From positions 2,623,835-2,687,834 of the forward strand of contig OY970384.1 of the NCBI GenBank assembly GCA_963719435.1: a DNA stretch of 64,000 nt, given 5' to 3'. The position numbers and the translations under genes were made by a program. Positions 2-37,294 of the stretch are shown here, in pieces. A model generated the notes under the pieces. The model had not been told where the DNA came from. It searched no databases and was given only the letters and a program-made list of their open reading frames with translations. The stretch comes from an uncultured Solirubrobacterales bacterium. GTDB lineage: Bacteria > Actinomycetota > Thermoleophilia > Solirubrobacterales > 70-9. The first letter of the stretch is position 1, and every line of letters begins with the position of its first letter.

Positions 2-913
2 GTGCGCGGCACGGCGATGGTCGCCGCCGACCCGATCGGGCCGCCGGGGGACGAGGGCCGGACGATCGACGAGTTCCTCGCCTTCTGCGCCGGGCGCGGC
101 TGGCGGGTCGCCTTCTTCGCCGTGCGCGAGGCCGACGCCGACCTCTACCGGGCGCGCGGGATGCGCGTGATCTACCTCGGCGACGAGGCGATCCTGCGCT
201 GCGACGAGTTCAGCCTCGACGGCGCCGGCATGAAGGCGGTCCGGACCGCGGTCAAGCACGTCGGCAAGGACCACTCCTTCGAGCTGATCGCCGAGCCCGA
301 GGCGAGCCCGGAGCTGATCGCCGAGCTGAACGAGATCAGCGCCGAGTGGCGCGAAGGGGCACCCGAGCGCGGCTTCACGATGGAGCTGGGCGAGGACGTC
401 GAGGGTGCGCAGCCCGACTTCGTGATCGCCATCGCGCGCGAGCGGCAGGGCGGCCGCGTCGCCGGCTTCCTCCGCTTCGTCCCCGTCTACGGCGACGAAC
501 CCGGCTACTCGCTGGACCTGATGCGGCGCCGGCCCGACTGCGCCAACGGCCTCACCGAGTACCTGATCGCCGAGGCGGCGCTGGCCCTGGGCGCGCGCGG
601 CTTCAAGCGGCTCTCGCTCAACTTCGCCGCCTGGGGGCGGCTGCTCGACAGCGCCGAGGACGCCGGCCTCTCCGGCCGCCTGCAGCGGCTGATGGCGAAA
701 GGCCTGAACCCGTTCTTCCAGATCCAGAGCCTGCGCGACTTCAACCAGAAGTTCGGCCCCGAATGGGTGCCGCGCTCGGTCGTGATCGACGACGCCTCCG
801 ACCTGCCGCGGCTGGCGATGCTCTACGCCAGCGTCGAGGGCTTCCTCGAGGTGCCGGTGCTGAGCCGTGTGCTGGAGCCGCCGATCCGCCAGCGGGTCGA
901 CGCCGCGAAGTAA
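2..913 (+). CDS. DUF2156 / aminoacyl-phosphatidylglycerol synthase C-terminal domain protein (MprF/LysX type), 5' end cut by the window
   Basis: ORF is open at the left edge. Translation carries MprF C-terminal domain hallmarks (GFTMELG, SLDLMRRRPD, NPFFQIQSLRDFNQKFGPEWVPR) and strong third-position G+C. Confidence 0.75.
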   Translation: MRGTAMVAADPIGPPGDEGRTIDEFLAFCAGRGWRVAFFAVREADADLYRARGMRVIYLGDEAILRCDEFSLDGAGMKAVRTAVKHVGKDHSFELIAEPEASPELIAELNEISAEWREGAPERGFTMELGEDVEGAQPDFVIAIARERQGGRVAGFLRFVPVYGDEPGYSLDLMRRRPDCANGLTEYLIAEAALALGARGFKRLSLNFAAWGRLLDSAEDAGLSGRLQRLMAKGLNPFFQIQSLRDFNQKFGPEWVPRSVVIDDASDLPRLAMLYASVEGFLEVPVLSRVLEPPIRQRVDAAK

Positions 914-1783: not shown

Positions 1784-2839
1784 TCAGTCCGGGAGGCGGC
1801 GGCGCTCCTGCCTGGCCATCAGCCGCACCGAGATCAGCAGCAGGACGTCGACCGCGAGGCCGAACACGGCGCCGAACTGGGACTCGACGAAGGTGAAGAC
1901 GCGGGTGACGAAGATCGAGACCAGCAGCGCCCGGCTGAGCCAGGCGTAGGCATCGAGGCGGTCGCCGCGCAGCAGCCGCTCGAGGCCGACGACGACCAGG
2001 GTGGCGGAGACGGCGGTCGAGGCCAGGGTCGCCCAGTTGATGAAGTTGAGGTGGGAGACCGAGTCCTCCTCGAAGCCGGCGCGGGCGGCGTCGCCGGCGA
2101 AGCCGAAGGAGAGGACGAGGCCGAGGATCGCGGCGACCGAGGCCAGGGCCCAGAGGGCGAAGACGGCGATCACGAGGCGGTGGAACCAGCGCCGTTCGGA
2201 CCAGCGCCCGTAACGGGCGGCGACGGCGTCGGCGAAGCGCCGGTACCAGGGCGGGTTCGGGTTGGGCGTGGTGTCGATCTGCTCGGCGACGCCCAGCAGC
2301 GGGTCGCGCAGCGGCTGCGTCGCCGGGACCTCGCGCAGCAGCGCCAGCGCCTGGTCGCGGTATTCGACCTTGAAGGGGCCGCGGGTCGCCTCGCCGATCA
2401 GCTCGACCGCGTTGCGCACCTTCTCGGCGTCGTCGAGGCCACGGTGGCGCTGGAAGGCGCGCGAGCCGAGGTAGAGGCCGATGAAGATCAGGTAGATGAT
2501 CCCCGCCGCCGGCTTGTAGAAGTAGTCGTTGTCGGCGGTGATGAACTTGCCGAGCTCGTCGATGAAGAAGCCGAAGCCGACGCCGGCGACCAGGGCCGCT
2601 ACCTGGCGGGCGCGGCGGCCGAGGAAGCTGAGCAGGATCGCCAGCGCGACGACCATGAAGAGGCCGCCCCAGAGCAGGTGGGCGATGTGCAGGCCGTGGC
2701 CACCGAGCTGCGGGTAGTGGGTCAGGTAGAGCTGGGTGCGGATGCAGAGCTCGGTGGCGATCGCGGTGACGAAGAAGGTGAGGTGGAGCGCCCCGAGGTT
2801 GGCGTTGCGCGGCGCCCGCTGCAGCAGGTGGACGTTCAC
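1784..2839 (-). CDS. integral membrane protein of unknown function (paralogue of 1019..1771)
   Basis: This is the C-terminal 351 codons of the 897-aa track ORF. GTG at 2839 overlaps the permease stop (GTGA). The rest of the track ORF is an Arg/Pro-rich shadow frame over the permease gene. Motifs present: HGLHIAHLLWGG and GVGFGFFIDE. Confidence 0.6.
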   Translation of the reverse strand: MNVHLLQRAPRNANLGALHLTFFVTAIATELCIRTQLYLTHYPQLGGHGLHIAHLLWGGLFMVVALAILLSFLGRRARQVAALVAGVGFGFFIDELGKFITADNDYFYKPAAGIIYLIFIGLYLGSRAFQRHRGLDDAEKVRNAVELIGEATRGPFKVEYRDQALALLREVPATQPLRDPLLGVAEQIDTTPNPNPPWYRRFADAVAARYGRWSERRWFHRLVIAVFALWALASVAAILGLVLSFGFAGDAARAGFEEDSVSHLNFINWATLASTAVSATLVVVGLERLLRGDRLDAYAWLSRALLVSIFVTRVFTFVESQFGAVFGLAVDVLLLISVRLMARQERRRLPD

Positions 2840-4341
2840 GCGCCGCTCTCCTCCGGAGCCGGTTCCGGCCGGCTGGTGATGCCGGCGGCGATCGTCGCCA
2901 TCTTCTTGCTGCTGTGGGCGCGGGCGTAGAAGAAGTAGACGCAGAGGCCGATCGCGGCCCAGACCGCGAGCCGGATCCAGGTGTCGCCGGGGAGCGTCGC
3001 CATCAGCGCCAGCGAGGAGACGATCGCGGTGCCGGCGACCAGCGGCAGCGCCGGCACCCGGAAGGGCCGCGGCAGGTCGGGATAGCGGCGGCGCAGGGTG
3101 AGGACGCCGGCGGAGACGATGATGAAGGCGAGCAGGGTCCCGATCGAGATCAGTTCGCCGAGCACCGAGAGCGGCACCAGGCCGGCGACGATGCCGCCGA
3201 CGATCCCGCAGAGGACGATCGAGAACTGGGGCGTCTTGGTGCGGCCGCTGACCTTGCCGAAGGCCGGCGGCAGCATCCCGTCCTCCGACATCCGCATGAA
3301 GATCCGGGTCTGGCCGTAGAGGGTGACCAGCACGGTCGAGGCGAGGCCGACGACGGCGGCGAAGTCGGTCAGCTTCAGCAGCCAGTCGAGATCGCGGCCG
3401 CCGGCCTGGAGCGCGACCGCGATCGGATCGGCGACGCCGAGGTCGCGGTAGTCGACCATGCCGGTGAGGACGAAGCCGACGGCGATGTAGACGACGGTGG
3501 CGATGATCACCGTGCCGAGCAGCCCGATCGGGACGGTGCGGCGAGGGTTGCGGGCCTCGGCCGCGGCGGTGGAGACGGCGTCGAAGCCGATGTAGGCGAA
3601 GAAGACGATGCCGGCGCCACGGAAGACGCCGCTCCAGCCGAAGTCGCCGAACCCCCCCTCCGCCGCCGGCAGGAACGGCTTCAGGTTGGAGGAGGAGACG
3701 TAGAAGATGCCGACCACGACGACCAGCAGCAGGATCGAGAGCTTCAGCAGGACCATCGAGTTGTTGGCGACCGCCGACTCGCGGGTGCCGAGCCAGAGCG
3801 CCCCCGAGGTGAGGAACATGATCGCCATTGCCGGCAGGTTGATGATCCCGGGGTCGTCGCCGAACGGGGCGGTGACGAGGGCGTGCGGGAGGTGGACCCC
3901 GAACGAGTCGAGCAGGCTGACGAAGTAGCCCGACCAGCCGACCGCCACGGTCGAGGCGGCGAACAGGTACTCGAGCAGCAGGTCCCAGCCGATGAACCAG
4001 CCGACGAAGGAGCCGAAGGCGGCGAAGGCATAGGAGTAGGTGCTGCCGGCGGCCGGGATCATCGAGGCCAGCTCCGCGTAACAGAGGGCGGTCAGCCCGG
4101 CGACTATGCCGGCGAGGACGAAGGAGATCAGCACCGCCGGCCCCGCGTAGTGGGCGGCGGCGTCGCCGGTGACGACGAAGATCCCGGCGCCGACGACGCT
4201 GGCGACGCCGAGCAGGGTGAGGCTGAAGGCGCCGAGGGCGGTGGAGTTGAGCCGGGTGCGGTCGTGCTCGGCCGTCGCCAGGATCGCGTCGAGGTTGCCG
4301 CGATCCGGCCCGGGGTCGCTCATCGGCCGTGATCCTGCCAC
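2836..4341 (-). CDS. APC-superfamily (cationic) amino acid permease
   Basis: 501-aa ORF with 12-13 hydrophobic segments and the APC signature region GAFSLTLLGVASVVGAGIFVVTG...GPAVLISFVLAG. Start is either GTG 4341 or ATG 4323. Confidence 0.85.
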   Translation of the reverse strand: MAGSRPMSDPGPDRGNLDAILATAEHDRTRLNSTALGAFSLTLLGVASVVGAGIFVVTGDAAAHYAGPAVLISFVLAGIVAGLTALCYAELASMIPAAGSTYSYAFAAFGSFVGWFIGWDLLLEYLFAASTVAVGWSGYFVSLLDSFGVHLPHALVTAPFGDDPGIINLPAMAIMFLTSGALWLGTRESAVANNSMVLLKLSILLLVVVVGIFYVSSSNLKPFLPAAEGGFGDFGWSGVFRGAGIVFFAYIGFDAVSTAAAEARNPRRTVPIGLLGTVIIATVVYIAVGFVLTGMVDYRDLGVADPIAVALQAGGRDLDWLLKLTDFAAVVGLASTVLVTLYGQTRIFMRMSEDGMLPPAFGKVSGRTKTPQFSIVLCGIVGGIVAGLVPLSVLGELISIGTLLAFIIVSAGVLTLRRRYPDLPRPFRVPALPLVAGTAIVSSLALMATLPGDTWIRLAVWAAIGLCVYFFYARAHSSKKMATIAAGITSRPEPAPEESGA

Positions 4342-4370
4342 GGGGACCGGCGCGATTAGGGTCCGACCCG

Positions 4371-5054
4371 ATGACCGCCGAGCGCCCGAGTTCCCAGCTG
4401 CCGACCACGATCGCCGGCCTCGCCGCGGCGCTGCTCTGCAACTTCTGGGTGCTGGAAGGGCTGCTGGCCAAGCGCAACGACCTCTCGGGGGCCTGGATCA
4501 GCGACCTGGCGGCGCGCTCGCAGGCCTACGGCTGGCGCTTCCAGCTGCTCGAAGTCGCCGCCGGGCTGGCGATCGCCGGCTTCGCGGCGCTGTTGCTGCG
4601 GGGGGCGGGAGGCCGGCCCGCGGGCGCGGGCGACACGCAGCTGCTGCGCCGCGGCCTCCTCGCCCTGCTCGCCGCCGGGGCCCTCGCCGCGCTCGGAGGC
4701 GTTGCCCCGCTCAACTGCGCCGAAGCCCTGGAACGGACCTGCGACCTCAGCTACGACCCCTTCGACCTGCTCCACACCGTCGCCAACCTGCTCGAAGTCG
4801 TCGCCCTGGCGGCGGCCTTCGCCCTGGTCGGGATCGGCCTGGCGCGCGCCCAGCCGAGGCTGAGCCGGACGACGCTGACGATCGGCGCCCTCTGGCTGCT
4901 GCTGATGGCGCTGGCCGGGATCGGCTACCTGGTCGGCGACGTCGGCGCGGCCAAGGGCCTGTTCCAGCGCGGCGGCCAGCTCCTGCTCGGCGCCTGGCTG
5001 GCGCTGCTCGGGCTGAGCACTGCGCGCCTGGCGGGACCGGACGAGGGCCATTGA
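4371..5054 (+). CDS. DUF998-like integral membrane protein
   Basis: ORF 4329..5054; ATG at 4371 (MTAERP...) is the preferred start. Multi-pass hydrophobic protein, divergent from the permease gene. Confidence 0.55.
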   Translation: MTAERPSSQLPTTIAGLAAALLCNFWVLEGLLAKRNDLSGAWISDLAARSQAYGWRFQLLEVAAGLAIAGFAALLLRGAGGRPAGAGDTQLLRRGLLALLAAGALAALGGVAPLNCAEALERTCDLSYDPFDLLHTVANLLEVVALAAAFALVGIGLARAQPRLSRTTLTIGALWLLLMALAGIGYLVGDVGAAKGLFQRGGQLLLGAWLALLGLSTARLAGPDEGH

Positions 5055-5231
5055 CCCTCGCTTGCGTAGGACCTGCGTATGAATGCGCAGGCCTCCTTTA
5101 CTGCAATTCGTCCAAAAAGCGACAAGCAGCCTTGCCTTTTCGTTCCCTCAAGTTGGCCCTGGATGGCGCCGATGGGAGGACTTAGCCGGGATCGAGTTCC
5201 CGGCGTCAATCTTTAAAAAGGAGACAAAAGT

Positions 5232-5702
5232 ATGAATTTAGTTACCAAACGAGGTGCCCTGACTGCTCTTGCCGGCGTTTGCGTCCTCGCCATCGCCGCC
5301 GGCGCTTACGCGTACTTCACGACCACCGGCTCGGGCACGGCGACCGCCACCGTAGGCACCAGCTCTGCCGTGACTTTGAAAGGGACCATCGCCGGGAACC
5401 TCTATCCCGGGTCGTCCTCGCCGGTCACGCTGACGGTCGACAACCCGTCCGCGGGGAAACAGCGCGTGGGCACGATCTCGCTGGAAAAAATCACCGCTGA
5501 CGCCGGCCACGCGAGCTGCAGCGTCGTCACCACCGGCGGCAACCCGGACTTCACGATGGCCGACGTCGTCGTCAACAAAACGTACGCGACCGGCAACAAC
5601 CAGGCCGTGACGCCCAGCGGGACGCTGGCGATGAACGACACCGGGGTCAACCAGGACGCCTGCCAGGGCGCAACCCTGACGCTGACCCTGAAAAACAACT
5701 AG
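5232..5702 (+). CDS. small secreted TasA/camelysin-superfamily protein with a SipW-type signal motif
   Basis: Good RBS (AAAGGAGAC) 7 nt upstream of the ATG. The signal anchor is followed by AYAYFTTTGSG (compare TasA WAAFNDIKS). NLYPGSSSPVTLTVDNPSAG and C-terminal NQDACQGATLTLTLK parallel TasA NLKPGDKLTKDFQFENNGS and NKYQGNSIKLQFSF. Confidence 0.7.
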   Translation: MNLVTKRGALTALAGVCVLAIAAGAYAYFTTTGSGTATATVGTSSAVTLKGTIAGNLYPGSSSPVTLTVDNPSAGKQRVGTISLEKITADAGHASCSVVTTGGNPDFTMADVVVNKTYATGNNQAVTPSGTLAMNDTGVNQDACQGATLTLTLKNN

Positions 5703-5724
5703 CGCGTCAGGCCGCTGACCGGCC

Positions 5725-6645
5725 ATGTCTCCTGGCCGCAAGGCGATCAGCCGCGCAAGCGCGATCAGGGCGATCCTCGCCCTGATCGCGCTCTCCGCCT
5801 GCTTCGGGGCAGCCGCGTACGCGGCCACCCGTCCCACGCATCCGGCGCCCGCCCTGGGGGGAAGCAAGCCGGTCGAGGTCGCGCCCCAGCAGGGGAGCGA
5901 CGGACCACGGAACAAGAAGGACGAACCGTTGCTGCAGCCCCGCTTCATCGAATATCCAGAGGCGGTCTCGGCCGAGACCGAGACCCAGTTCCGTTTCCAC
6001 GTGCCGTCGCGGCGTGCGGCGCAGCCGGGCCCGCCACAACCCGGAGCGGCGGCCCCGACGCAACCACGGCCCTTCCAGTGCAGGCTCGACGGCAGCAGGT
6101 GGACGGCCTGCGAATCTCCCCACCGCCTCGACCGCCTCTCCCCCGGCGGCCATACCTTCGCGGTCCGTGCCCTCAATCGCGGCGACCTGCCCGGACCGGT
6201 GATCAGCTACTCCTGGCAGCGGGTCGAGCCCGAGACCCGCGATGGTGGAGTGGACCGGAATGACGAGGTCGGCCCGAGTGTCGAGGTGGACCCGAAGCCG
6301 TTCTCGGTCGAGCTCGGCGGCCAGCTCGAGGAGCTGCATCCAGGCGATCCCGCGCAGGAGCTGCCGGTCCTGATCACGAATCCGAACGCCGTTCCGATCG
6401 AGGTCACGAGCCTCGCCGTCGCCATCGCCGGCGAGCCGCCGGAATGCGGCGCCGAGAACTTCTCGCTGAGCCCTTCGAGCGCATCCGCGGCAACCCCGAT
6501 CACGGTGCCGGCGAACGACTCGGTCAGCCTGCCGACGGCCACCGTCGCGGCCCCGACGATCGCCATGCTCAACCTTCCGGTCAACCAGGACTCCTGCCGC
6601 GGTGTCGACATCCCCCTCGCCTTCGCGGGTGAGGCAGGCGGATGA
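5725..6645 (+). CDS. secreted protein: FxCxLDG Ig-like domain plus a C-terminal TasA-like domain
   Basis: Starts 22 nt after the previous gene. Has a signal peptide and the domain PFQCRLDGSRWTACESPHRLDRLSPGGHTFAVRA. The C-terminal ELHPGDPAQELPVLITNPN ... NQDSCRGVDIPLAF resembles gene 5232..5702. Confidence 0.7.
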   Translation: MSPGRKAISRASAIRAILALIALSACFGAAAYAATRPTHPAPALGGSKPVEVAPQQGSDGPRNKKDEPLLQPRFIEYPEAVSAETETQFRFHVPSRRAAQPGPPQPGAAAPTQPRPFQCRLDGSRWTACESPHRLDRLSPGGHTFAVRALNRGDLPGPVISYSWQRVEPETRDGGVDRNDEVGPSVEVDPKPFSVELGGQLEELHPGDPAQELPVLITNPNAVPIEVTSLAVAIAGEPPECGAENFSLSPSSASAATPITVPANDSVSLPTATVAAPTIAMLNLPVNQDSCRGVDIPLAFAGEAGG

Positions 6646-8507
6646 AGCGCCTCTGCAGAGCCGGCCTCGCGGCAACCCTGTTGGCGACCCTCCTCGCCGC
6701 CATCGGCGGCAGTGCCCTTGCCTATTTCTCCAGCACCGGGAGCGGCACCGCCTCGGCGGCGGTGACGAAACTGAATGCGCCGACGATCAGCGCCGCAACC
6801 GCCGCGGCGGGCGGCACCGTCACCCTGACCTGGGGAGCCGTGACGCCTCCGGGCGCCGGGTCGGTCACCTACTACGTCACCCGCGACGGCGGCAATCCCG
6901 CCGGCACCTGCCCGACCGCGGCGGCTTCGACGACCGTGGTCACCTGCAAAGACGCCGGCCTCGCAATCGGCGAGCACGTCTACAAGGTGACGGCGCTGTG
7001 GGAGACCTGGAGCGCTGCGGGAGCGACCAAAACGGCCAACGTGACGGTTGGCGAAACGACCAAGTTCACGATCTCGGGCAGCACCGCGACCCCCGTCGCG
7101 GGCGGCGCGGTAAATCTCACGATCACCGCCAAAGACGTCAACAACAGCACCGTCACGACCTACACCGGTGCGCACAGCCTGGTCTTCTCCGGCGCCTCAT
7201 CCAGCCCGGCCGGCAACGCCCCCACGGTGGCGAACAGCTCCGGTTCCGCGGTCAACTTCGGCAGCGCCACCGCACTCACCTTCACGTCCGGAGTCGCCAC
7301 CGTCAGCACGACCAAAAACGGCGTCTTGAAAATCTACAAAGTGGGAGCCGCCAACATCGTGGCCAGCGAGGGCTCGGTGACGACGCCGACGCCACTGGCC
7401 CTGACCGTCAGCCACGCCGCGACCTCGAAATACCTGCTCGCCGCGGCGAGCGCCGCGCCCGCGGCCGGTGCCGACGACAACCTCACGATCACCGCCCAGG
7501 ACGCCTACGGCAATCTTGCGACCGGCTACACCGGATCCCACGGCCTCGTCTTCTCCGGCGCATCCGCCAGCACCGGCGGCAACCTGCCGACCGTGTCCGA
7601 CTCGAGCGGTGTCGACGTCGCCTTCGGCGCCGCCACCACGATCGCCTTCGAAGAAGGCGTCGCCGTCGCGGCCGACGGCGATGGCGGCACGATGAAGCTT
7701 CCCCGCAGCGGCTCGACCGCGGTCAAAGCGACCGAGGTGGCGATCGTCACCCCGACCGCCGTGACCGTGACCGTGGCCCCGGGCGCGGCGACGAAACTCG
7801 TGCTCACCGCGTCCACCGCGACCCCGGTGGCGGCGGCGAACTTCAACCTCACGACCACCGCGCAGGATGTCTACGGCAACACGGCGACGTCCTATGCCGG
7901 CGCGAAGAGCATCACCTTCTCTGGTGCTTCCGCCAGTCCCAGCGGAGCCCTGCCGACGGTGGTCAACAACGCCGGCACGGCGACCGCCTTCGGCAGCGTC
8001 ACCGCGCTCACCTTTACCGCCGGCGTCGCCGCCGTCGCCTCCTCGAAAAACGGCTACGCGAAACTGAGCAAAGCCGGTGCGACGAGCGTCTCGGCGACCG
8101 ACGGCACGCTAACGACGGCGGCTCCCCTGGCATTGACGGTTGCGACCGGCTCGGCCTCGCGGGTCGCCTTCCTCGAACTCGTCGCCAGCGCCGGCTCGGT
8201 CGGCTCGCCCTGCCTCTTCACCTGCCCGGTCACGGCGCTCGGCAACTCCGGCACGGTCAAAGCCGATGTCGGGATCACCGACAGCGCCGGCAACCCGATC
8301 TCCAACGTCGGAGCGATCAAAACCGTCACGATCGGCGTCACCACCGGCGGCACGATCAGCGGCTCGCCGCTGACGATCCCCGCCACCGGGCCAGCCGTCT
8401 CCGAAACGGAATTCACCTACACCGCGCCGGCCAGCGGCGCCTTCAGCCACACGATCACGGCAGCCTCCACGGGCTACACCAGCGCCACCTCGGCAGTGAC
8501 CAAATAG
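6642..8507 (+). CDS. secreted multi-domain protein: SipW-type signal motif, FN3-like domain and four Ig-like (Big_1/invasin-like) repeats
   Basis: ATGA overlap with the previous gene. Signal peptide followed by LAYFSSTGSGTASAAV. Contains four tandem units of about 120 aa each (see repeat feature). Confidence 0.8.
   Translation: MKRLCRAGLAATLLATLLAAIGGSALAYFSSTGSGTASAAVTKLNAPTISAATAAAGGTVTLTWGAVTPPGAGSVTYYVTRDGGNPAGTCPTAAASTTVVTCKDAGLAIGEHVYKVTALWETWSAAGATKTANVTVGETTKFTISGSTATPVAGGAVNLTITAKDVNNSTVTTYTGAHSLVFSGASSSPAGNAPTVANSSGSAVNFGSATALTFTSGVATVSTTKNGVLKIYKVGAANIVASEGSVTTPTPLALTVSHAATSKYLLAAASAAPAAGADDNLTITAQDAYGNLATGYTGSHGLVFSGASASTGGNLPTVSDSSGVDVAFGAATTIAFEEGVAVAADGDGGTMKLPRSGSTAVKATEVAIVTPTAVTVTVAPGAATKLVLTASTATPVAAANFNLTTTAQDVYGNTATSYAGAKSITFSGASASPSGALPTVVNNAGTATAFGSVTALTFTAGVAAVASSKNGYAKLSKAGATSVSATDGTLTTAAPLALTVATGSASRVAFLELVASAGSVGSPCLFTCPVTALGNSGTVKADVGITDSAGNPISNVGAIKTVTIGVTTGGTISGSPLTIPATGPAVSETEFTYTAPASGAFSHTITAASTGYTSATSAVTK
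7056..8504 (+). repeat. four tandem coding repeats of about 365 nt (Ig-like domains) inside CDS 6642..8507
   Basis: Units are approximately 7056-7421, 7422-7790, 7791-8153 and 8154-8504. Shared pattern: T-K-[FLY]-x-[IL]...NLT[IT]TA[KQ]D.YGN...Y.G...[LI].FSGAS.S..G..PTV....G....FG..T...F..GVA. The fourth unit is divergent. Confidence 0.8.
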
Positions 8508-8516: not shown

Positions 8517-8954
8517 TCAGTTCTTCTCGACGACCTCGACGGTGCCGTGCATGTCGGGATGGAAGTCGCAGACGTAGGCGTAGGTGCCCGCCTGCTTGAA
8601 GGTCTCCGACTTGAGCTTGCCTTCCTCCAGCGAGCCGGTGTCGAAGCTGCCGTCCTCGGCGGTGGCCGTGTGGGCGTCCGCATCCTGGTTGAGCCAGGTC
8701 ACCTTGCCGCCGACCTGGACCGTGACCGGGTCGGGGTCGTAGGCGAAGTCGACGATCTCGACCTTGGCCGAGCGTTCGGCCTCACCACTTGGGGCGGGCG
8801 CGTTGCCGCCGCTCTCCTCGCCGGAGTCGGTCGACTCCGACTCGGTCACGGTCGCGGTGCTGGTGGAGGAGTCGTCGTCTCCACCTCCGCAGGCGGCGAG
8901 ACCCAGCGCCAAGAGGATGAGCAGAACCGCTGCGAGTGGTGCTTTGGCTTTCAT
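8517..8954 (-). CDS. cupredoxin (amicyanin/plastocyanin-like) lipoprotein
   Basis: Lipobox LGLAAC. Type-1 copper ligands are present: H in DADAHTA and C-x2-H-x2-M in YVCDFHPDMHG, the amicyanin-like spacing. Its start overlaps the stop of the upstream USP-like gene (ATGA). Confidence 0.8.
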   Translation of the reverse strand: MKAKAPLAAVLLILLALGLAACGGGDDDSSTSTATVTESESTDSGEESGGNAPAPSGEAERSAKVEIVDFAYDPDPVTVQVGGKVTWLNQDADAHTATAEDGSFDTGSLEEGKLKSETFKQAGTYAYVCDFHPDMHGTVEVVEKN

Positions 8955-9568
8955 CCCCCCGCCCTACCCTCGATGGCGAGACGGGAACCAGGCGGGGCGC
9001 CTGCAGCTCGTGATCCGTTCGCGGTCACGAACAGCCTGTCCTCCGGCCCCGGTCGCAGGATCAGTACCTCGGCTGGAGCCCTCTCCAGGAGCCAGACGAG
9101 ATCGTCGCCCGAGAATCCGGCGCCGGCCTCGGCCGTCGCCGGCACTACGACGCGATCGAAGCTCTCGCGGGAGAGCAGCCGCTCCAGGGCATGACGATAG
9201 GAGCGCCCTCGCTCGATGCGGGCGTCCACCGAGACGTCCTGGGATGCGGCGCGCTGCTCGATCGCCTCGAGCATCGGCATCGCCTTCGCCGCCTCGGATG
9301 GGATCGAGCAGTCGAGCGGCAGTCGCTTCGGCACCGCTGCCAGGTACGCCGGCATCAGCGTCGCCTCCTCCGCTCGCGCCAGACGCAACGCCGCATCGAG
9401 CGCTCGCCGCGAGATCTCCGTGCCGGTGAAGGGAAGGAGGATCTGATGGATGGCCTGCGGCCGCTCGGATCGGCGGCCGCGGAGCCGCGAACGGGCAATC
9501 AGGTGGCCGCCCATCAAGCCAGCGGCGAGCGCAACGAAGATCAGGACATGCACGATCCTCACCGTCAC
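8951..9568 (-). CDS. membrane-anchored universal-stress-protein-like protein
   Basis: GTG start overlaps the stop of the KdpD N-terminal gene (GTGA). N-terminal TM helix followed by a USP-like alpha/beta domain (ILLPFTGTEISRRALDAALRLA...VVVPA). Confidence 0.55.
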   Translation of the reverse strand: MTVRIVHVLIFVALAAGLMGGHLIARSRLRGRRSERPQAIHQILLPFTGTEISRRALDAALRLARAEEATLMPAYLAAVPKRLPLDCSIPSEAAKAMPMLEAIEQRAASQDVSVDARIERGRSYRHALERLLSRESFDRVVVPATAEAGAGFSGDDLVWLLERAPAEVLILRPGPEDRLFVTANGSRAAGAPPGSRLAIEGRAGG

Positions 9569-10677
9569 CGCTCCTCCTTTCCCATACGGCGAGCGACGAT
9601 CCGCACATCTACCCCAGCCGGCGTCGCCCGCATCAGCCGCTGCGGCAGCGGCTCCCGCAGCCGCGCCAGGCCGCGCGGCGGCTCGGACTCCCCGACCATG
9701 ATGTAGGTGATGCCGCGCTCGCGGACCACCTGCGCGACACCCTCCACGAGGCTGTCGCTCTCCTCGATCAGGAAGGTCGCGCCGAGGACCGAGGCGAGAT
9801 GGCGCAGGGCCGTCACCTGGCGCTCAACCTCGCCCTCGATCGGCTGGTTCGGCGGCTTCACCCAAAGCAGGTCGAGGCCGGTGCCGAGCCGCTGCGCGGA
9901 GCGCCAGGCGCGGCGCACAAGACGCTGCGAGCTCGGCTGCGGCCGGACCAGCGCCAGCAACCGCTCGCCCACCGCCTGCGCCACCTCGGCCGAGACCCGC
10001 TCCTCGCGGGTGCCAAGCGGAGCCTCGACCACCAGCCGCCTGGCCTCGACCTCCTGGGCGACCTGGCGCAGCGCGACCTCGCGCAGGGCCAGCAGGTTCT
10101 CGACGGTGAAGAAGTTGCGCAGCGCCGCCTCGACGTTCTCCCCCGGGTAGACCTTGCCGGCCCGCAGGCGCTCGATCAGCGCCTCGGGGGTGAGGTCGAT
10201 CAGGACCACCTCGTCGGCCTCCCCCAGCACCGCGTCGGGGATCGTCTCCCGCACCCGCGTCCCGGTCAGCTCCGCGACCTGGTCGTTCAGCGACTCGAGG
10301 TGCTGGACGTTGACGGTGGAGAAGACGTCGATGCCGGCGGCCAGCACCTCGCGCACGTCTTCGTGGCGCTTGGGGTGCTCGGCGCCGACCGCGTTGGTGT
10401 GGGCCAGCTCGTCGATCAGCGCCAGCTCGGGCGCTCGGGCCAGGAGCGCCGGCAGGTTCATCTCCTCCAGGTCGGTGCCGCGATAGGCGAGGCGCCGCCG
10501 GGGGACCGTCTCCAGGCCCTCGGCCAAAGCCGAGGTCTGCGGCCGCCGATGCGGCTCCATGTAGCCGATCGCCACGTCGCGGCCGGACTCCTGCTCGGCC
10601 TGGCCCTCCTGGAGCATCCGGTAGGTCTTGCCGACCCCGGCCGCCATGCCGATGAAGACCTTGAGGCGGCCGGCCAT
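9565..10677 (-). CDS. kdpD: stand-alone KdpD N-terminal sensor domain (KdpD + Usp domains), no TM or kinase part
   Basis: 370 aa. Walker-A-like GMAAGVGKTYRML, LIDELAHTN and a USP-type C-terminal half, as in the cytoplasmic N-terminal portion of E. coli KdpD. Begins 4 nt after the kdpB stop. Confidence 0.85.
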   Translation of the reverse strand: MAGRLKVFIGMAAGVGKTYRMLQEGQAEQESGRDVAIGYMEPHRRPQTSALAEGLETVPRRRLAYRGTDLEEMNLPALLARAPELALIDELAHTNAVGAEHPKRHEDVREVLAAGIDVFSTVNVQHLESLNDQVAELTGTRVRETIPDAVLGEADEVVLIDLTPEALIERLRAGKVYPGENVEAALRNFFTVENLLALREVALRQVAQEVEARRLVVEAPLGTREERVSAEVAQAVGERLLALVRPQPSSQRLVRRAWRSAQRLGTGLDLLWVKPPNQPIEGEVERQVTALRHLASVLGATFLIEESDSLVEGVAQVVRERGITYIMVGESEPPRGLARLREPLPQRLMRATPAGVDVRIVARRMGKEER

Positions 10678-10681
10678 CGGC

Positions 10682-12760
10682 TCATGCTCCGAGCAGGTTG
10701 TGAATCACCAGGTCTATGAGCTTGATCCCGACGAAGGGGACGATCAAGCCGCCGAGGCCGAAGATCAGCATGTTGCGGCGCAGGAGCGCCGTGGCGCCGA
10801 TCGGCCGGTAGCGGACCCCGCGCAGCGCGAGCGGCACCAGCAGCGGGATCACCAGGGCGTTGAAGACGATCGCCGAGAGGATCGCCGAGGCCGGGGTCCC
10901 CAGCTCCATGACGTTGAGCGCGTCGAGCGGCCCGCGCTCGCCGGGACCGGCGGCGTAGGTGAAGGCAAAGATCGCCGGCAGGATGGCGAAGTACTTGGCG
11001 ACGTCGTTGGCGATCGAGAAGGTGGTCAGCGCTCCGCGGGTGATGAGGAGCTGCTTGCCGATCTCCACGACCTCGATCAGCTTCGTCGGGTTGGAGTCGA
11101 GGTCGACCATGTTGCCCGCCTCGCGCGCGGCCTGGGTGCCGGTGTTCATCGCCACCCCCACGTCGGACTGCGCCAGCGCCGGGGCGTCGTTGGTCCCGTC
11201 GCCGGCCATCGCCACCATCCGGCCTTCGGCCTGGTGCCCGCGGATCAGCTCCAGCTTCTGCTCGGGGGTCGCTTCGGGGAGGAAGTCGTCGACCCCGGCC
11301 TCCTCGGCGATCTTCGCGGCGGTGAGCCGGTTGTCGCCGGTGACCATCACGGTCGAGATCCCCATCCGCCGCAGTTCGTCGAAGCGGGCGCGCATCCCCT
11401 CCTTGACGATGTCCTTCAGGTAGACGACGCCGAGGACGTGGTTGTCGCGGCAAACCGCCAGCGGCGTGCCGCCCTCACGGCCGATCAGGTCGAGCTGCTC
11501 CTGCAGCTCGACCGGCGGGCGGCCGCCCTGCTCTTCGACGTAGCGGATGATCGCGTCCCCGGCGCCCTTGCGGAACTGGTTGCCGTTGACGTCGACCCCA
11601 CTCATCCGGGTTGCGGCGGAGAAGGGGACGAAGGTGGCGGCGTGGGTGTCCAGCTCCCGCTCGCGGATGCCGTACTCGCTCTTGGCGAGGACGACGATCG
11701 AGCGCCCCTCGGGCGTCTCGTCGGCCAGCGAGGAGAGCTGCGCCGCCTCGGCCAGCTCGGAGTCCTCGATTCCCGGCATCGGGATGAACCGCGTCGCCTC
11801 GCGGTTGCCGAGCGTGATCGTGCCGGTCTTGTCGAGCAGCAGCACGTCCACGTCGCCAGAGGCCTCGACCGCGCGGCCGGAGAGGGCGAGCACGTTGTGG
11901 CGGACGAGGCGGTCCATGCCGGCGATCCCGATCGCCGAGAGCAGGGCGCCGATCGTGGTCGGGATCAGCGCCACCAGCAGCGCGATCAAAGTGACCACCG
12001 AGGCGTCGGTGCCGGAGAACTCGGCGAAGGGCCGCAGCGCGACGACCACGGCGACGAAGACGAGGGTGAGCCCGGCGAGCAGGATGTTGAGGGCGATCTC
12101 GTTCGGCGTCTTGCGTCGCTCCGCCCCCTCGACCAGGGCGATCATCCGGTCGAGGAAGCTCTGCCCCGGCTCCTGCGTGATCTCGACCACGATCCGGTCG
12201 GAGAGGACGCGGGTGCCGCCGGTGACCGCGCTGCGATCGCCGCCGGACTCGCGCACCACCGGCGCCGACTCGCCGGTGATCGCCGACTCGTCGACCGAGG
12301 CGATGCCCTCGATCACGGTGCCGTCGCCGGGGATCGCCTCCCCGGCCTCGACCACGACCACGTCGCCGCGATGAAGCTCGGAGGCCGGCTTCTCGCCGCC
12401 GTCGCGCAACCGTGCCACGGTTTCGCTGCGCATCGAGCGCAATGCATCGGCCTGCGCCTTGCCCCGCCCCTCGGCGATCGCCTCGGCGAAGTCGGCGAAG
12501 ACGACGGTGAGCCAGAGCCAGACGCCGATCGAGAAGGCAAACCAGGCGGGCTCGTCGCCGCCGCCCAGCGGCGCACCTCCGAAGACCTGGATCAGCCAGC
12601 CGGCGGTGACGATCGCGGCGCCGATCTCGACCACGAACATGACCGGGTTGTGGAACTGGTGGCGCGGATCGAGCTTGCGCAGCGAGTCGAGCGCGGCGCG
12701 CAGGAGGATCGGCCGGTCGAGCAGCGAGCGCGGTTCGTTGCGCAGCGTCTCGTCGGTCAT
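10682..12760 (-). CDS. kdpB: potassium-transporting P-type ATPase, catalytic subunit KdpB
   Basis: 692 aa. Contains DKTGTIT phosphorylation motif, TGDN and [10 protein letters not shown]. Confidence 0.95.
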
Positions 12761-13353
12761 TCGGCGGCTCCCTGGTCGAGGGCGAGGTTGAGCTCGAGGA
12801 CGTTCACGCCGGGCTCGCCGAACAGCCCGAGGAAGCGGCCGTCGGTGTGCTCGTCGACGAGACTGAGAACGGCCGCGGGCGGCAGCTCGCGCACCGCCGC
12901 GACCCGGCGCGCCTGGATGCGGGCGTTGGCGAGCGAGATGTGGGGATCGACCCCCGAGGCGGAGGTGGTGACCGCGTCGACCGGCACCTCCCCGGCGCGC
13001 AGGCCGGGTTCATAGGGGCGCTCGCGCTTCAGGTAGGTGGCGAGCTGTTCGGCGAAGAAGTCGGAGAGCTCGCGGCTGTTGGGCCCGAGGTTGTCGAAGA
13101 AGGTGACGCTGCCGCTGTATTCGGTCGCCGACGGGCGGCTCTGGAAGTAGCGCGGCAGGCCCTCGAAGTCCTGGCCGATCAGCTTCGAGCCGACGATCCT
13201 GCCGTCCTGCTCGATCCTGCTGCCGCTGGCGGCGCCGGGGAAGACCAGCTGCGCGACCCCGGTCGTCAGCAGCGGATAGGCGACGCCGAGCACCAGCGTC
13301 AGGAAGAAGATCGCCACGGCGGCAGTGACCAGGTCTTTTCGCAGGCCGTTCAT
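12757..13353 (-). CDS. kdpC: potassium-transporting ATPase subunit KdpC
   Basis: 198 aa with a single N-terminal TM helix. Contains [20 protein letters not shown] and [20 protein letters not shown], which are KdpC signatures. Confidence 0.9.
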
Positions 13354-13354
13354 C

Positions 13355-15109: not shown

Positions 15110-15198
15110 TACAACCGCTCTCCTCGAAACAGGGCGTAGCCCAGATAGGCGAAGACCGTCGCCGCGACGATCAGGCCGAAGAGCTCAGCGGCGCTCAT
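15109..15198 (-). CDS. kdpF: KdpF micropeptide (29 aa)
   Basis: MSAAELFGLIVAATVFAYLGYALFRGERL matches the KdpF pattern (single TM helix, YL.YAL.RPE+F-like tail). Its stop overlaps the kdpA start by 1 nt. Confidence 0.8.
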   Translation of the reverse strand: MSAAELFGLIVAATVFAYLGYALFRGERL

Positions 15199-15275
15199 AC
15201 GCGGTCGATCGCCTCGATCAGCGCGTAGATCGCGCCGAAGGCGGCGAGTGCGAGGACGAGGGAGACGAGATCCAT
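15195..15275 (-). CDS. hydrophobic 26-aa micropeptide translationally coupled to kdpF (candidate)
   Basis: ATG at 15275. Translation by hand gives MDLVSLVLALAAFGAIYALIEAIDRV. Its TGA overlaps the kdpF ATG (ATGA). It is not listed in the ORF track because it is too short. Confidence 0.4.
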   Translation of the reverse strand: MDLVSLVLALAAFGAIYALIEAIDRV

Positions 15276-15353
15276 GCGGTGATCGTGCGCCCCACCCCGT
15301 CAAGGCCGCATGAAGAAACGCGGCCTCCGTATACAGATTTCGTAAAGGTGCGC

Positions 15354-35504: not shown

Positions 35505-35507
35505 CCG

Positions 35508-35587
35508 CCCCTCCGATCGCTCGTTTGCGTAGGGGGCGCCAAGACCCGCGGCGGGCGGATCTCTCCCCCCTGCGAGCGGATCGGGGG
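35508..35587. repeat. long imperfect hairpin in the divergent promoter/5' region
   Basis: CCCCTCCGATCGCTCG pairs with CGAGC(G)GATCGGGGG (about 14 bp with one bulge). An inner AGGGGG/CCCCCT stem encloses about 29 nt. Confidence 0.5.
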
Positions 35588-35611
35588 TGCCGCGTGCAGC
35601 GCTTTGCGAGA

Positions 35612-36769: not shown

Positions 36770-36808
36770 GCGCTGCGCCGTCGGTCGTTCGAGACGAGGG
36801 CCAGTGAG

Positions 36809-37222: not shown

Positions 37223-37240
37223 CCGCAACCCTCCCGGCAC

Positions 37241-37270: not shown

Positions 37271-37294
37271 CGAAGCTGGTGCGCGGCGCGGCTA

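Follow-up and report, generated by a model that had tools for sequence, protein, structure and literature searches.

A conserved three-gene operon of uncultured soil Solirubrobacterales with the predicted parts of a TasA-like donor-strand fibre

Donor-strand exchange builds the fibres of TasA, with a complementing strand supplied by TapA (PMC9674648, PMC10151520). [quoted passage not shown] ABP pili, known from the archaeal AbpA/AbpB of Pyrobaculum calidifontis and their eight-gene locus, are reported to use a generic signal peptidase, and AbpB, the proposed strand donor, would carry distal beta-domains (PMC9245690). Subunits for the tip and for the anchor are part of haloarchaeal Tafi loci (PMC12337348). 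Tafi and AbpX-type loci usually code for a dedicated SPase I and DUF5305, often with LPXTG or SLH anchors, and their proteins are acidic and calcium-dependent.

The locus compared here with these systems lies in a 64-kb window, the whole stretch of DNA analysed, from a member of the Actinomycetota (Thermoleophilia). Its three co-oriented ORFs, g1, g2 and g3 (Table 1), have precisely the layout described in the earlier note, with a gap of 22 nt between g1 and g2 and a g2 stop codon that overlaps the g3 start as ATGA. Their GC3 of 0.85-0.88 supports their coding status. Of 80 Solirubrobacterales/Thermoleophilia species genomes, about 76 retain the gene order, with unrelated flanks, and the ATGA overlap is kept in 71 of 77 loci, which bears out the view of a unit conserved in relatives; g2 is absent from three loci (L034, L080 and L085). 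All 80 related loci come from Solirubrobacterales/Thermoleophilia MAGs, and the operon is a unit conserved more than by chance in uncultured soil Solirubrobacterales. A soil metatranscriptome holds g1-like RNA (two 151-nt contigs, ~92% identity).

Table 1. Features of the g1-g2-g3 locus (positions in the window)
Feature	Positions	Strand	Description	Basis
WhiG/sigma-28-type promoter-like element	5148..5175	+	-35 TCAA 5148-5151, 16-nt spacer, -10 GCCGATGG 5168-5175	
Leader hairpin	5185..5204	+	GCCGGGA-TCGAGT-TCCCGGC, between promoter and RBS	Read from sequence
g1 RBS (strong)	5217..5223	+	AAAGGAG, 9 nt before ATG	AAGGAGA conserved across loci
g1	5232..5702	+	156 aa	
g1 signal peptide	5232..5312	+	aa 1-27, ends in A-Y-A	Ala conservation; hhalign onto TasA/CalY signal
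g1 N-terminal strand segment	5313..5366	+	aa 28-45, YFTTTGSGTATATVGTSS, proposed donor strand	Conservation; AF2; shared with g3
g1 globular beta-sandwich	5367..5702	+	aa 46-156 and stop codon	AF2; homology to g2 C-terminal domain
g2	5725..6645	+	306 aa	
g2 signal peptide or anchor	5725..5823	+	aa 1-33, ends AAYA/ATRP (slash, predicted cleavage)	Alignment of 29 orthologs
g2 variable linker	5824..5940	+	aa 34-72, Pro/Gly/Lys/Arg-rich	Length and sequence vary among orthologs
g2 middle domain	5941..6234	+	aa 73-170, FxCxLDG..W..C.SP...G.H.F.VRA, two Cys	Conserved columns
g2 C-terminal g1-like domain	6298..6645	+	aa 192-306, Cys241 and Cys291, and stop codon; proposed acceptor-only	hhalign to g1
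g3	6642..8507	+	621 aa	
g3 signal peptide and strand	6642..6776	+	Signal aa 1-27 (A-L-A), strand aa 28-45, YFSSTGSGTASAAVTKLN; proposed donor-only	hhalign to g1 1-50
g3 N-proximal domain	6777..7031	+	aa 46-130, two conserved Cys, W64	Columns of 29-ortholog alignment
g3 tandem repeats	7032..8255	+	aa 131-538, about 3.3 copies of a 122-aa unit	Self-hhalign
g3 C-terminal domain	8256..8507	+	aa 539-621 and stop codon	Distinct from repeats

Protein g1 is a member of an unnamed and large family that comprises about 1400 clusters at 50% identity. Its most conserved part among 97 diverse relatives is the strand segment behind the signal peptide. Alanine occupies position -3 in 90 and position -1 in 93 of them, followed by Y/F at +1 (96/97), F/W at +2 (94/97), G at +6 (93/97) and G at +8 (91/97); the aromatic residue at mature position 2 is thus placed as in TasA-superfamily donor strands. 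The segment follows the pattern YF(T/S)xxGxGxAxAxV, in which small hydrophobic residues alternate, and is rich in Thr, Ser and Gly. The mature protein has 129 aa, a pI of 5.5 and only 5% Asp+Glu. AF2 models g1 with an overall pLDDT of 88 as an 8-strand beta-sandwich (pLDDT >92 in the domain). Cys96 and Cys144 are invariant in the family and one disulfide would stabilise the sandwich. The N-terminal segment is unpacked from the domain in this model (pLDDT 60-73), its strand not self-complemented.

The likeness of these proteins to TasA and camelysin, put forward in the earlier note, appears in the family and not in the window proteins themselves. The latter match neither PF12389 (Peptidase_M73, TasA/camelysin) nor TIGR04088, TIGR04089 or TIGR04090, the outcome of the HMM check being negative, and g1 of the window stays below all Pfam and NCBIfam thresholds. 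PF12389 is matched by 16 of the 97 g1 relatives (best E 4.5e-6; P0217 scores 22.3 bits for a cutoff of 22.5), the BsaA model TIGR04090 by seven and TIGR04088 by three. Comparison by hhalign of the g1 family with a CalY/TasA family alignment gives a full-length match of 149 columns at 83% probability, below the usual 95% level, and E 8.8e-6; the value against TasA alone is 12.8%. The alignment includes the two shared strand motifs that had been pointed out before, L.PG...N.G and the C-terminal NQD.C.G...L; PG...N.G also occurs in CARDB and PmoB-type domains. It superimposes the N-terminal strand of g1 on that of TasA/CalY and sets A-Y-A/Y-F-T on T-W-A/A-F-N of TasA, for which the mature chain in 8aur confirmed the cleavage site (A27/A28-F-N-D). 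A weak match to AbpX is found as well. The sandwich of g1 is predicted with confidence. Foldseek with this model is not specific and retrieves generic Ig-like sandwiches, all weak matches (E >0.03, TM <=0.46): the FimH pilin domain 1ze3, a donor-strand pilin, comes first and the TasA fibre 8aur 8th, with E 0.11. The post-signal motif resembles the SipW class to which it had been likened, but 0/97 relatives have at mature position 4 the acidic residue that TasA, CalY and AbpX typically carry. The profile comparisons indicate that g1 is a real, very remote TasA/camelysin relative, visible only at family level.

The other two proteins each share a different part of g1. BLASTP relates g1 to g2 with E 1e-4, on the NQD.C.G strand, and family-level hhalign aligns g1 46-155 with g2 192-302 at 97.8% and E 7e-13, in agreement with the proposed likeness to the C-terminal half of g2. 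Between g1 and g3 BLASTP gives E 7e-4 and hhalign of the families 95% and E 3e-8, limited to residues 1-50. This stretch contains the shared motif described in the earlier note, AYFTTTGSGT in g1 and AYFSSTGSGT in g3 (residues 27-36 in both), which follows the hydrophobic helix in each protein. The signal region of g2 lacks the YF..GxG strand in the alignment of 29 orthologs, and g3, whose N-terminal strand is conserved in 77 loci, lacks the g1-like domain, hhalign to g1 showing nothing beyond residues 1-50. Read from these alignments, the three proteins have complementary parts: strand and domain in g1, domain only in g2 and strand only in g3. In distant relatives too, g2 is acceptor-only (L084) and g3 bears the strand (L085).

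The remaining domains are less easily classified. The motif of the g2 middle domain is present and conserved (F117, C119, D122, W126, C129, G141 and H143), while its assignment to the Ig family is not confirmed by Pfam, where the domain matches no family; g2 of L084 does without it. The N-proximal domain of g3 has no Pfam match either. Self-hhalign of g3 at offsets of 122 residues (E 1e-68) and 244 residues (E 1e-36) replaces the four Ig-like repeats of the earlier note by the array and distinct C-terminal domain given in Table 1, and Pfam confirms neither the FN3 nor the Ig label. Repeat number varies and g3 orthologs range from 402 to 1359 aa. The best PDB sequence match of g3 is the invasin-like adhesin FdeC (4e9l), a weak one with E 0.0065. 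The carboxyl terminus of g3 has neither an LPXTG motif nor a membrane helix.

The operon probably codes for a self-contained extracellular fibre of the TasA-superfamily type, either a pilus or a matrix fibre, built by donor strands without a dedicated chaperone or peptidase. Sec would export all three proteins, and the cell's housekeeping type I signal peptidase would most likely cut them behind the conserved A-x-A. Mature g1 would be the repeating shaft subunit, its new amino terminus Y-F-T-x-x-G-S-G-T-A-T-A-T-V entering as a beta-strand the beta-sandwich of the neighbouring subunit. Having a sandwich and no strand, g2 could only accept and so would sit at the chain end where a free strand would be exposed; g3, with a strand and no sandwich, could only donate and so would cap the opposite end, where it would display a stalk of 122-aa repeats, probably as adhesin or spacer. 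The three genes would thus supply the smallest set of parts for a capped donor-strand fibre, from which we infer polymerisation itself, polarity and the adhesin role. The earlier reading of major subunit, accessory protein and adhesin-like component is strengthened by this strand/domain complementarity. The g1-g2 spacer mostly lacks a strong RBS; with g1 strongly initiated, g2 almost without RBS and g3 translationally coupled to g2, many g1 per g2 and g3 are predicted. The three proteins show no device for anchoring (LPXTG, SLH or C-terminal helix), which counts against the fibre reading.

The window encodes no S26 peptidase of SipW or LepB type in any frame, as anticipated, according to probes validated against NCBIfam (the TIGR02228-type probe reaches 232 bits against the SipW model). 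Likewise, 79 of 80 relatives have none within 10 kb, the sole S26 enzyme seen being a bacterial LepB type in one flank of L016. It is therefore likely that housekeeping SPase I processes the operon proteins. The predicted cleavage, at A-x-A before Y-F, falls inside the motif as it does in TasA, and is compatible with ordinary SPase I. Possibly, though we consider it unlikely, the fibre model holds with a dedicated SipW/ER-type signal peptidase encoded elsewhere that recognises [YF]-A-[YF]-[FW]-[TS]. The motif is like that of the SipW-cognate class and touches TIGR04088 and TIGR04090 in the relatives counted above, TasA, CalY, AbpX and Tafi usually go with a dedicated SPase I, and the search covered the 64-kb window and 20 kb in each relative. 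This is opposed by the canonical residues at -3 and -1, by the LepB type of the one enzyme seen, by the lack of a TIGR02228-type peptidase in the window and within 10 kb in 80/80 genomes, and by ABP pili being reported with a generic peptidase (PMC9245690).

It is rather improbable that the products are non-polymerising beta-sandwich proteins of an ordinary secreted or surface kind, in which the A-x-A-Y-F-T-x-x-G-S-G segment would serve only as a tag for export or processing, or as a Ser/Thr-rich site of O-glycosylation, and the likeness of g1 and g2 would reflect a simple domain duplication. The Thr/Ser/Gly-rich mature strand would suit such proteins, as would the generic Ig-like domains returned by the fold search, weak CARDB and Ig_VWA7 matches among g1 relatives and the lack of an anchor or assembly factor encoded nearby; polymerisation, moreover, is a prediction. 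However, g2 is exported with A-Y-A but without YF..GxG, so this segment is unnecessary for export. It is moreover the most conserved segment of g1 and the only part that g3 has in common with it, the strand-only, domain-only and combined pattern is retained in distant relatives, and the profile similarity to the fibre-forming CalY/TasA family is full-length. An active camelysin-like (M73) cell-surface metalloprotease, suggested by the name Peptidase_M73 of the nearest sequence family, is very improbable for g1, which has no HExxH or other conserved metal-binding motif, has as its only His a residue (H93) that the broader family does not conserve, has no counterpart to the central half of CalY and is related to proteins, TasA and CalY, treated as fibre proteins in the current literature. 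A type IV-like or sortase-assembled pilus, to which the N-terminal hydrophobic helix and the WhiG-driven type IV pili of Rubrobacter might point, is hardly credible in view of the missing class III signal (neither a conserved G/A ahead of the helix nor a Glu at +5), a conserved motif located after the helix, no C-terminal LPXTG, and no pilus ATPase, prepilin peptidase or sortase in the Pfam-read flanks.

As a donor-strand fibre, the system would resemble B. subtilis tapA-sipW-tasA and B. cereus CalY (PF12389) in being a three-gene secreted module, in the aromatic-rich strand directly after the signal peptide (TWA/AFND in TasA, AYA/YFTT in g1), and in the aligned L.PG...N.G and C-terminal (D/N)Q(N/D)x(F/C)QGxxLxL strands. 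It differs in the length of mature g1 (234 residues in TasA and about 170 in CalY), which lacks the central insert, in the disulfide pair and the missing acidic residue, in the absence of sipW from the operon and its surroundings, in the partners of g1, which in place of TapA would be one acceptor-only protein and one repeat protein that can only donate, and in the host phylum. With AbpA/AbpB it shares remote TasA homology detectable only by profile methods, A-x-A cleavage (predicted for g1) by a generic signal peptidase, a dedicated one not being encoded in the vicinity, and a proposed downstream strand donor and adhesin with distal beta-domains, the role proposed for g3; no g2-like acceptor-only subunit is described for the archaeal pili, whose structure is solved (PMC9245690), whereas g1-g2-g3 are known from sequence, with an AF2 model of g1. 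An aromatic residue at position 2 of the donor strand is common to Tafi and AbpX-type proteins (PMC12337348; bioRxiv 10.64898/2026.01.04.697558), from which g1 differs by its low acidity and the absence of linked SPase I. Bacterial loci of these kinds often adjoin c-di-GMP enzymes, as does the distant relative L085. Chaperone-usher pili (FimA/FimH) likewise have a shaft with an N-terminal donor strand, an incomplete Ig-like fold and one accept-only terminal subunit, and provide the top Foldseek match of g1; they show no sequence relationship to this operon, which has no chaperone or usher, belongs to a monoderm host and has in g3 a proposed donor-only cap.

The leader of g1 is A+T-richer with a strong RBS, as described earlier (GC 0.61 in 5001-5500 versus about 0.70 around). 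Its element TCAA-N16-GCCGATGG departs at 2 positions from the WhiG consensus published for actinobacteria, T(A/C)AA-N16-GCCGATAA (PMC12871210, PMC8325347). WhiG-type sites have a fixed position in relatives, 43-58 nt upstream of the g1 ATG, and a conserved central CGA; 32 of 80 loci have one with <=2 mismatches (background 0.55%) and 64 with <=3 (background 5.3%). The promoter scan found no sigma-70-type promoter. Hairpins occupy the same leader place in other loci with different stem sequences; RNAalifold on a MAFFT alignment gave no consensus and there was no Rfam match. A whiG gene is seen in one flank only, in one clade member, and RsiG was not found in flanks of relatives. WhiG and an RsiG with a single motif have been reported from Thermoleophilia, and the surface filament driven by the WhiG/RsiG/c-di-GMP switch in Rubrobacter is the type IV pilus (PMC8325347, PMC12871210). 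The g1 promoter fits the consensus of this actinomycetotal switch and its predicted target would again be a surface filament, here a TasA-like operon outside the reported target classes. Transcription of g1-g2-g3 would start from the WhiG (sigma-28)-type promoter, and its dependence on WhiG, which we infer, would subject the fibre to the c-di-GMP/RsiG/WhiG switch in Thermoleophilia.

The operon formed by genes g1, g2 and g3 was placed exactly in the earlier note, which also described correctly the tight linkage of the genes and the A+T-richer leader with a strong ribosome binding site (RBS). A gap of 22 nt separates g1 from g2, the stop codon of g2 overlaps the start codon of g3 in the sequence ATGA, and the leader has a GC content of 0.61 with AAAGGAG positioned 9 nt 5' of the g1 ATG. 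The three are real genes since their third-position GC is 0.85-0.88; the window sequence has 70% G+C.

Relatives of the g1 protein number 1365 in a 90%-clustered database, all of them 'hypothetical' and without Pfam domains, and those named come from Solirubrobacterales MAGs. An exhaustive HMMER scan gave 1402 clusters at the 50% level. Species-representative genomes, searched with the single g1 protein as query, yielded 80 loci, all from uncultured Solirubrobacterales/Thermoleophilia (Actinomycetota) and several lying on closed chromosomes of 2.5-3.1 Mb. Close g1 homologs have a mean column identity of 89%, and the positions invariant or nearly so among 97 diverse members of the family are A-x-A, Y/F-F/W-T/S, G33, G35, P59-G60, N71, C96, F107, Q141 and C144.

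Conservation of the operon as a unit, set as a check in the earlier note, was assessed by comparing g1, g2 and g3 with every ORF in the six frames of each locus. Where the sequence extends far enough downstream, essentially all loci keep gene order and orientation. The ATGA overlap between g2 and g3 is kept in 71/77 loci, and the g1-g2 gap is 15-25 nt throughout. The exceptions are two loci interrupted by contig ends (L043 and L044), one frameshifted assembly (L082) and two loci without g2 (L034 and L080). The cassette is flanked by entirely different genes from genome to genome, and therefore selection acts on the cassette itself. In the two Solirubrobacterales loci without g2 (L034 10463-12340 and L080 9949-13629) g1 is followed directly by g3; if the absence of g2 is real, the acceptor-only subunit would be dispensable in some lineages.

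The key anatomical result is that g1 has a strand and a domain, g2 a domain only and g3 a strand only. The internal similarities proposed from the sequence were recovered between g1 and the carboxyl terminus of g2 (E 1e-4) and between g1 and the first 41 residues of g3 (E 7e-4). In profile comparison with hhalign the C-terminal domain of g2 (192-302) is clearly homologous to the g1 sandwich (46-155; 97.8%, E 7e-13), with both cysteines kept, and the alignment begins past the position of the g1 N-terminal strand. The amino terminus of g2 reads AVAYA/ATRP (slash, predicted cleavage) and is followed by a variable Pro/Gly/Lys/Arg-rich linker, without a YF..GxG segment, and then by a conserved two-Cys FxCxLDG...HxFxVRA domain. 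The g3 protein aligns with g1 over its first 50 residues only (95%, E 3e-8). It lacks a g1-like domain and continues with a conserved domain close to the amino terminus, a 122-aa unit repeated about 3.3 times (131-538) and a domain at the carboxyl terminus. Pfam found no domain in diverse g2 and g3 orthologs, and the g2 profile retrieved nothing usable from the PDB.

The copy number of the 122-aa repeat sets the length of g3, which ranges from 402 to 1359 aa across genomes. Examples are found in L064 (11494-15558; 1354 aa) and L079 (11232-14192; 986 aa), while the 402-aa form in L074 (11576-12781) reaches the contig end and is probably truncated. Variation in length, here about three-fold between species, is typical of surface stalk and adhesin proteins.

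The same strand/domain logic is kept in distant members of the family. The gene after g1 in L084 is a g2 that retains only signal and acceptor domain; in L083 it is a g2-like gene, and in L085 a g3-like gene whose product carries AWA/SYASTGAGTG. In L085 the g3-like gene is split into three ORFs by the assembly and there is no g2.

The signal motifs quoted in the earlier note, AYFTTTGSGT in g1 and AYFSSTGSGT in g3, are each found at residues 27-36. They belong to a strand core common to both proteins, Y-F-[TS]-x-x-G-x-G-x-A-x-A-x-V, and the g1 strand is nearly invariant across loci. Positions -3 and -1 of the predicted A-x-A cleavage site are Ala in 90/97 and 93/97 g1 relatives, mature position 2 is aromatic (F/W) in 94/97, and an alternating A-x-A-x-V pattern follows. 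A predicted cleavable Sec signal succeeded directly by an amphipathic N-terminal strand with an aromatic residue at mature position 2 is a TasA-superfamily feature that is thus present in the g1 family. Mature position 4 is T, S, A, G or N in all 97 relatives and never D or E. In TasA, CalY and AbpX an acid at this position is the calcium or strand-locking residue. Donor strands of the TasA superfamily are described as amphipathic, with an aromatic second residue and usually an acidic fourth one, the latter being frequent and not universal (bioRxiv 10.64898/2026.01.04.697558).

An AlphaFold2 model of g1 computed with a shallow alignment (81-91% identity) had a pLDDT of 55 and was discarded. 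With the diverse alignment the monomer model reached a pLDDT of 88 overall, and more than 92 for residues 41-156. It consists of an eight-strand beta-sandwich from which the signal helix and residues 22-47 are unpacked. Foldseek searches of the PDB with this model returned weak generic matches only, all to Ig-like folds at E >0.03. The best match is the FimH pilin domain (1ze3_H), which is donor-strand-dependent, and the TasA fibre (8aur_A) ranks eighth (E 0.11, TM 0.32/0.24). The predicted g1 fold is compatible with that of TasA and not diagnostic of it.

The absence of a SipW peptidase nearby, remarked on in the earlier note, holds and can be generalised: no S26 peptidase was found in the 64-kb window, whichever frame was read, and the 10-kb flanks of the cassette yielded none in 79/80 genomes. 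The sole S26 enzyme near the cassettes is a true LepB-type protein encoded in the L016 flank (TIGR02227, 85 bits). The SipW probe used was validated by its own scores (NF046067, 232 bits at a cutoff of 190; TIGR02228, 163 bits), and it retrieved no SipW/ER-type (TIGR02228) peptidase when ORFs in all six frames were searched in the window and in the 80 loci with 10-kb flanks. Because no S26 enzyme is encoded nearby, Ala occupies positions -3 and -1 and the ABP system offers a precedent (PMC9245690), g1, g2 and g3 are most likely processed by the housekeeping SPase I. A dedicated SipW encoded elsewhere in the genome is a possible alternative. A motif S-[GS]-S-M-x-P in g2 of three loci (L001, L010 and L014) resembles the signal-peptidase catalytic-Ser box; as it falls within the variable part of g2 and is not conserved, it was judged to be a chance occurrence.

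The likeness to TasA and camelysin proposed in the earlier note finds no support in direct HMM searches with the window proteins. None of the three matches a Pfam or NCBIfam model at E<=1, including Peptidase_M73, TIGR04088, TIGR04089 and TIGR04090, and the window g1 does not reach the gathering threshold of PF12389 Peptidase_M73 (22.5 bits). A first batch of ten divergent g1 relatives also gave no Peptidase_M73 match. Among the 97 relatives, Peptidase_M73 is the Pfam family most often matched (16/97 at E<0.1, best 4.5e-6). Eight of these matches were inspected; they score 15.3-22.3 bits, below the cutoff of 22.5, and cover HMM positions 1-98 of 196, which correspond to the signal, the N-terminal strand and the first beta-strands. 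The NCBIfam matches are led by TIGR04090 'BsaA family SipW-dependent biofilm matrix protein' (7/97, best 0.0018), with TIGR04088 (3/97, best 0.0058) among the families that follow, all of these matches lying far below the cutoffs; TIGR04089 is not among the NCBIfam matches listed for the 97.

A PDB sequence search with g1 found no relative, and the family profile gave a weak touch (E 0.2) on AbpX, an archaeal TasA-superfamily protein. Local phmmer comparison of TasA with the g1 family was marginal. The hhalign match of the g1 family to TasA alone is weak (12.8%, E 0.002), with AYA/YFTT placed on TWA/AFND and LYPG..VDNPS on LKPGD..FENNGS; the start of mature TasA at A28 (TWA/AFND) was checked against PDB 8aur. 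Comparison of the 97-member family with a CalY/TasA alignment of 26 sequences (25 PF12389 proteins and TasA) gave a probability of 83.2%, below the customary level of 95%, with E 8.8e-6 over 149 columns. It spans the whole protein (g1 4-156 versus CalY 8-199) with the motifs in register, including the C-terminal strand, where NQDACQGATLTL faces DQNxFQGDxLxLEW. By this alignment the g1 family looks like a miniaturised TasA/CalY without the central insert. The profile evidence makes homology to the TasA superfamily quite probable. It is not proven because the hhalign probability is below the 95-97% used for AbpA, which was assigned to the superfamily by HH-type profile homology at 97% (PMC9245690), and because the PG...N.G strand motif occurs also in unrelated sandwiches, e.g. 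CARDB and PmoB.

Donor-strand complementation was shown for TasA (PMC9674648), AbpA (PMC9245690) and Tafi (PMC12337348). Polymerisation of g1 by the same principle is proposed here, and the complementarity of strands and domains in g1, g2 and g3 supports it indirectly. Following Sec export and A-x-A cleavage, the new N-terminal strand of g1 would insert into the sandwich of a neighbouring g1. The linear chain so formed would have an unfilled groove at one end and an unused strand at the other. As g3 would donate and could not accept a strand, it would fit the end with the unfilled groove; g2 would accept and could not donate, and would therefore fit the end with the unused strand. The g3 repeat stalk may be an adhesin or a spacer, a role paralleled by that proposed for AbpB (PMC9245690) and by the tip proteins of the Tafi (PMC12337348) and AbpX (bioRxiv 10.64898/2026.01.04.697558) loci. 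If its signal is uncleaved, g2 would parallel the Tafi anchors, which combine a helix with a jelly roll. Neither LPXTG or SLH nor a C-terminal helix was found in g1, g2 or g3.

Among the rival readings (ALTERNATIVES) is the view that the proteins are non-polymerising secreted sandwiches with a common export tag. Two points weaken this explanation: g2 lacks the tag and is exported all the same, and the pattern of strand only, domain only or both is conserved. A sortase pilus was rejected, as g1, g2 and g3 have no C-terminal LPXTG (an LP.[TSA]G occurs just once, inside g3 near residue 353) and no sortase was found in the Pfam-read flanks. The class III signal of a type IV pilin combines a short, basic leader and G/A at -1 with a hydrophobic helix that bears Glu at +5 and is kept on maturation; this reading was also rejected, since neither a Gly before the helix nor a Glu is conserved and the conserved motif lies after the helix. 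A camelysin-like metalloprotease activity of g1 was discarded for lack of HExxH and of a conserved His.

In the preferred model of a g1 fibre with g2 and g3 at its ends, an excess of g1 is predicted, since the g1 RBS is strong, the g1-g2 spacer is mostly without an RBS and g3 is coupled to g2. The public RNA data searched yielded solely two short contigs of 151 nt from a soil metatranscriptome (run X4), which match g1 at ~92% identity (window 5417-5695); nothing convincing was found on g2 or g3. They provide hints that g1-family genes are transcribed in soil.

The c-di-GMP/RsiG/WhiG switch controls sporulation in Streptomyces and flagella elsewhere. In Rubrobacter the WhiG switch drives type IV pili, and WhiG together with a single-motif c-di-GMP-binding RsiG was reported in Thermoleophilia (PMC12871210, PMC8325347). 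The actinobacterial WhiG consensus is a -35 element T(A/C)AA, N16 and a -10 element GCCGATAA whose central CGA is conserved (PMC12871210, PMC8325347). Promoters were defined by at most two mismatches, an intact central CGA and a location within 200 bp of the start codon (PMC8325347). By this published definition the window sequence qualifies: TCAA, N16 and GCCGATGG form an element with two mismatches, 56 nt 5' of the g1 ATG. This WhiG-type motif was absent from the earlier note. A bipartite motif is common to the leaders of L001-L082, 43-58 nt 5' of the g1 ATG, and its loose version occurs in 64/81 loci (~0.1 expected). The WhiG consensus is matched with at most two mismatches in 32/80 loci (background 0.55%) and with at most three in 64/80 (background 5.3%). 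Matches elsewhere in the flanks are at background level and reveal no regulon. No sigma-70-type promoter was found for the operon. These motifs raise the hypothesis that the operon may depend on WhiG.

No WhiG gene is present in the 64-kb window. A true WhiG gene (L023 1587-2366; NF004935, 346.5 bits, cutoff 343) is located ~8 kb upstream of the cassette on the closed chromosome OY969571 of one Solirubrobacterales-clade member. Search of the flanks for RsiG motifs gave nothing credible, and no RsiG-motif protein lies beside this WhiG. The distant member in L085 (2523-7785 and 8001-10581; 39% identity) lies directly 3' of a GGDEF diguanylate cyclase with an EAL-GAF protein near, and in L084 an OmpR-type response regulator is found upstream. 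The leader of the window operon features a hairpin, found at the same place with other stems in other clades (e.g. GGCCNCG/CGNGGCC and GGAGCG/CGCTC). It has no Rfam match, and RNAalifold gave no consensus on a MAFFT alignment.

The other genes of the window are ordinary (see the table). Within the Kdp cluster (9565-17179) the sensor appears split between a KdpD-like N-terminal protein without kinase domain (NF038185) and a separate kinase. A group of likely secreted proteins is encoded around 33234-47539, with which the two unassigned signal-peptide proteins of the table are counted. In L001 a cupredoxin gene is also found 3.5 kb downstream of the cassette, possibly by coincidence.

Coordinates of features in the window (empty cells, no entry)
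Feature	Position	Strand	Remarks
MprF-like fragment	2-913		
APC amino-acid permease	2836-4341	-	
DUF998 membrane protein	4329-5054		
Promoter-like element, -35 part	5148-5151		
Promoter-like element, -10 part	5168-5175		
Leader hairpin GCCGGGA/TCCCGGC	5185-5204		between promoter-like motif and RBS
g1	5232-5702	+	156 aa
Predicted mature g1 N-terminal peptide, semi-tryptic			YFTTTGSGTATATVGTSSAVTLK
g2	5725-6645	+	306 aa
g3	6642-8507	+	621 aa
Cupredoxin/amicyanin-like lipoprotein	8517-8954	-	converges on g3, 9 nt between stop codons
KdpD-like sensor, KdpC, KdpB, KdpA	9565-15109	-	
Histidine kinase matching KdpD C-terminal part	16031-17179	-	
CU044_5270-family protein	within 17335-19634	-	572 aa, likely anti-sigma factor
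ECF sigma factor	19050-19634	-	translationally coupled to CU044_5270-family protein
RCC1-repeat/He_PIG/PASTA protein	19697-21469	-	590 aa, adjoins ECF/CU044_5270 pair
Big_13 Ig-like protein	33237-35627	-	likely secreted
Subtilase S8	37691-40294		likely secreted
Protein with signal peptide	41172-42335		no family
RTX calcium-binding repeat protein	45551-47539		likely secreted
Protein with signal peptide	54360-55508	-	no family
GroEL, Lhr helicase, Wzy-type ligase			elsewhere in window

The g1 system probably belongs to the TasA superfamily as a very divergent member. By analogy the operon would work like the TasA/TapA, AbpA/AbpB and Tafi systems. It differs from them in a mature subunit of 129 aa with a disulfide and without the acidic strand residue, in explicit acceptor-only and donor-only partners with no dedicated peptidase seen, and in a WhiG-type promoter and a deep actinobacterial class as host. 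The central TasA cluster includes Actinomycetota, with nothing more specific noted (bioRxiv 10.64898/2026.01.04.697558), and the literature searched held no paper linking TasA to Thermoleophilia. A wider proposal, rather doubtful at present, is that a main structural target of the c-di-GMP/RsiG/WhiG switch in Thermoleophilia is a donor-strand fibre of minimal design, encoded by three genes, made of a TasA-derived 129-aa shaft, an acceptor-only end and a donor-only adhesin cap, and assembled without a dedicated peptidase, chaperone, usher or sortase. If true, the operon would encode the smallest complete pilus system of the TasA superfamily, and the WhiG switch would have a new output in an uncultured actinobacterial order that is among the most abundant in soil.

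Within the Actinomycetota of soil, Solirubrobacterales are one of the most abundant groups, and to our knowledge almost none have been cultured. The operon is found in at least 80 species-level genomes and the g1 family comprises about 1400 clusters at 50% identity, with every member 'hypothetical'; if the model is right, it would be the basis for new Pfam/NCBIfam models naming several thousand proteins. The three proteins would form a compact and easily expressed system with shaft, acceptor-only end and donor-only cap cleanly separated, which would make it useful for studies of chaperone-free donor-strand assembly, and possibly a protein-fibre scaffold. The TasA superfamily would then reach a deep class of actinobacteria, in a reduced form without central insert, acidic strand residue or SipW, and in Thermoleophilia a connection of WhiG/c-di-GMP signalling with matrix or adhesion fibres could be tested.
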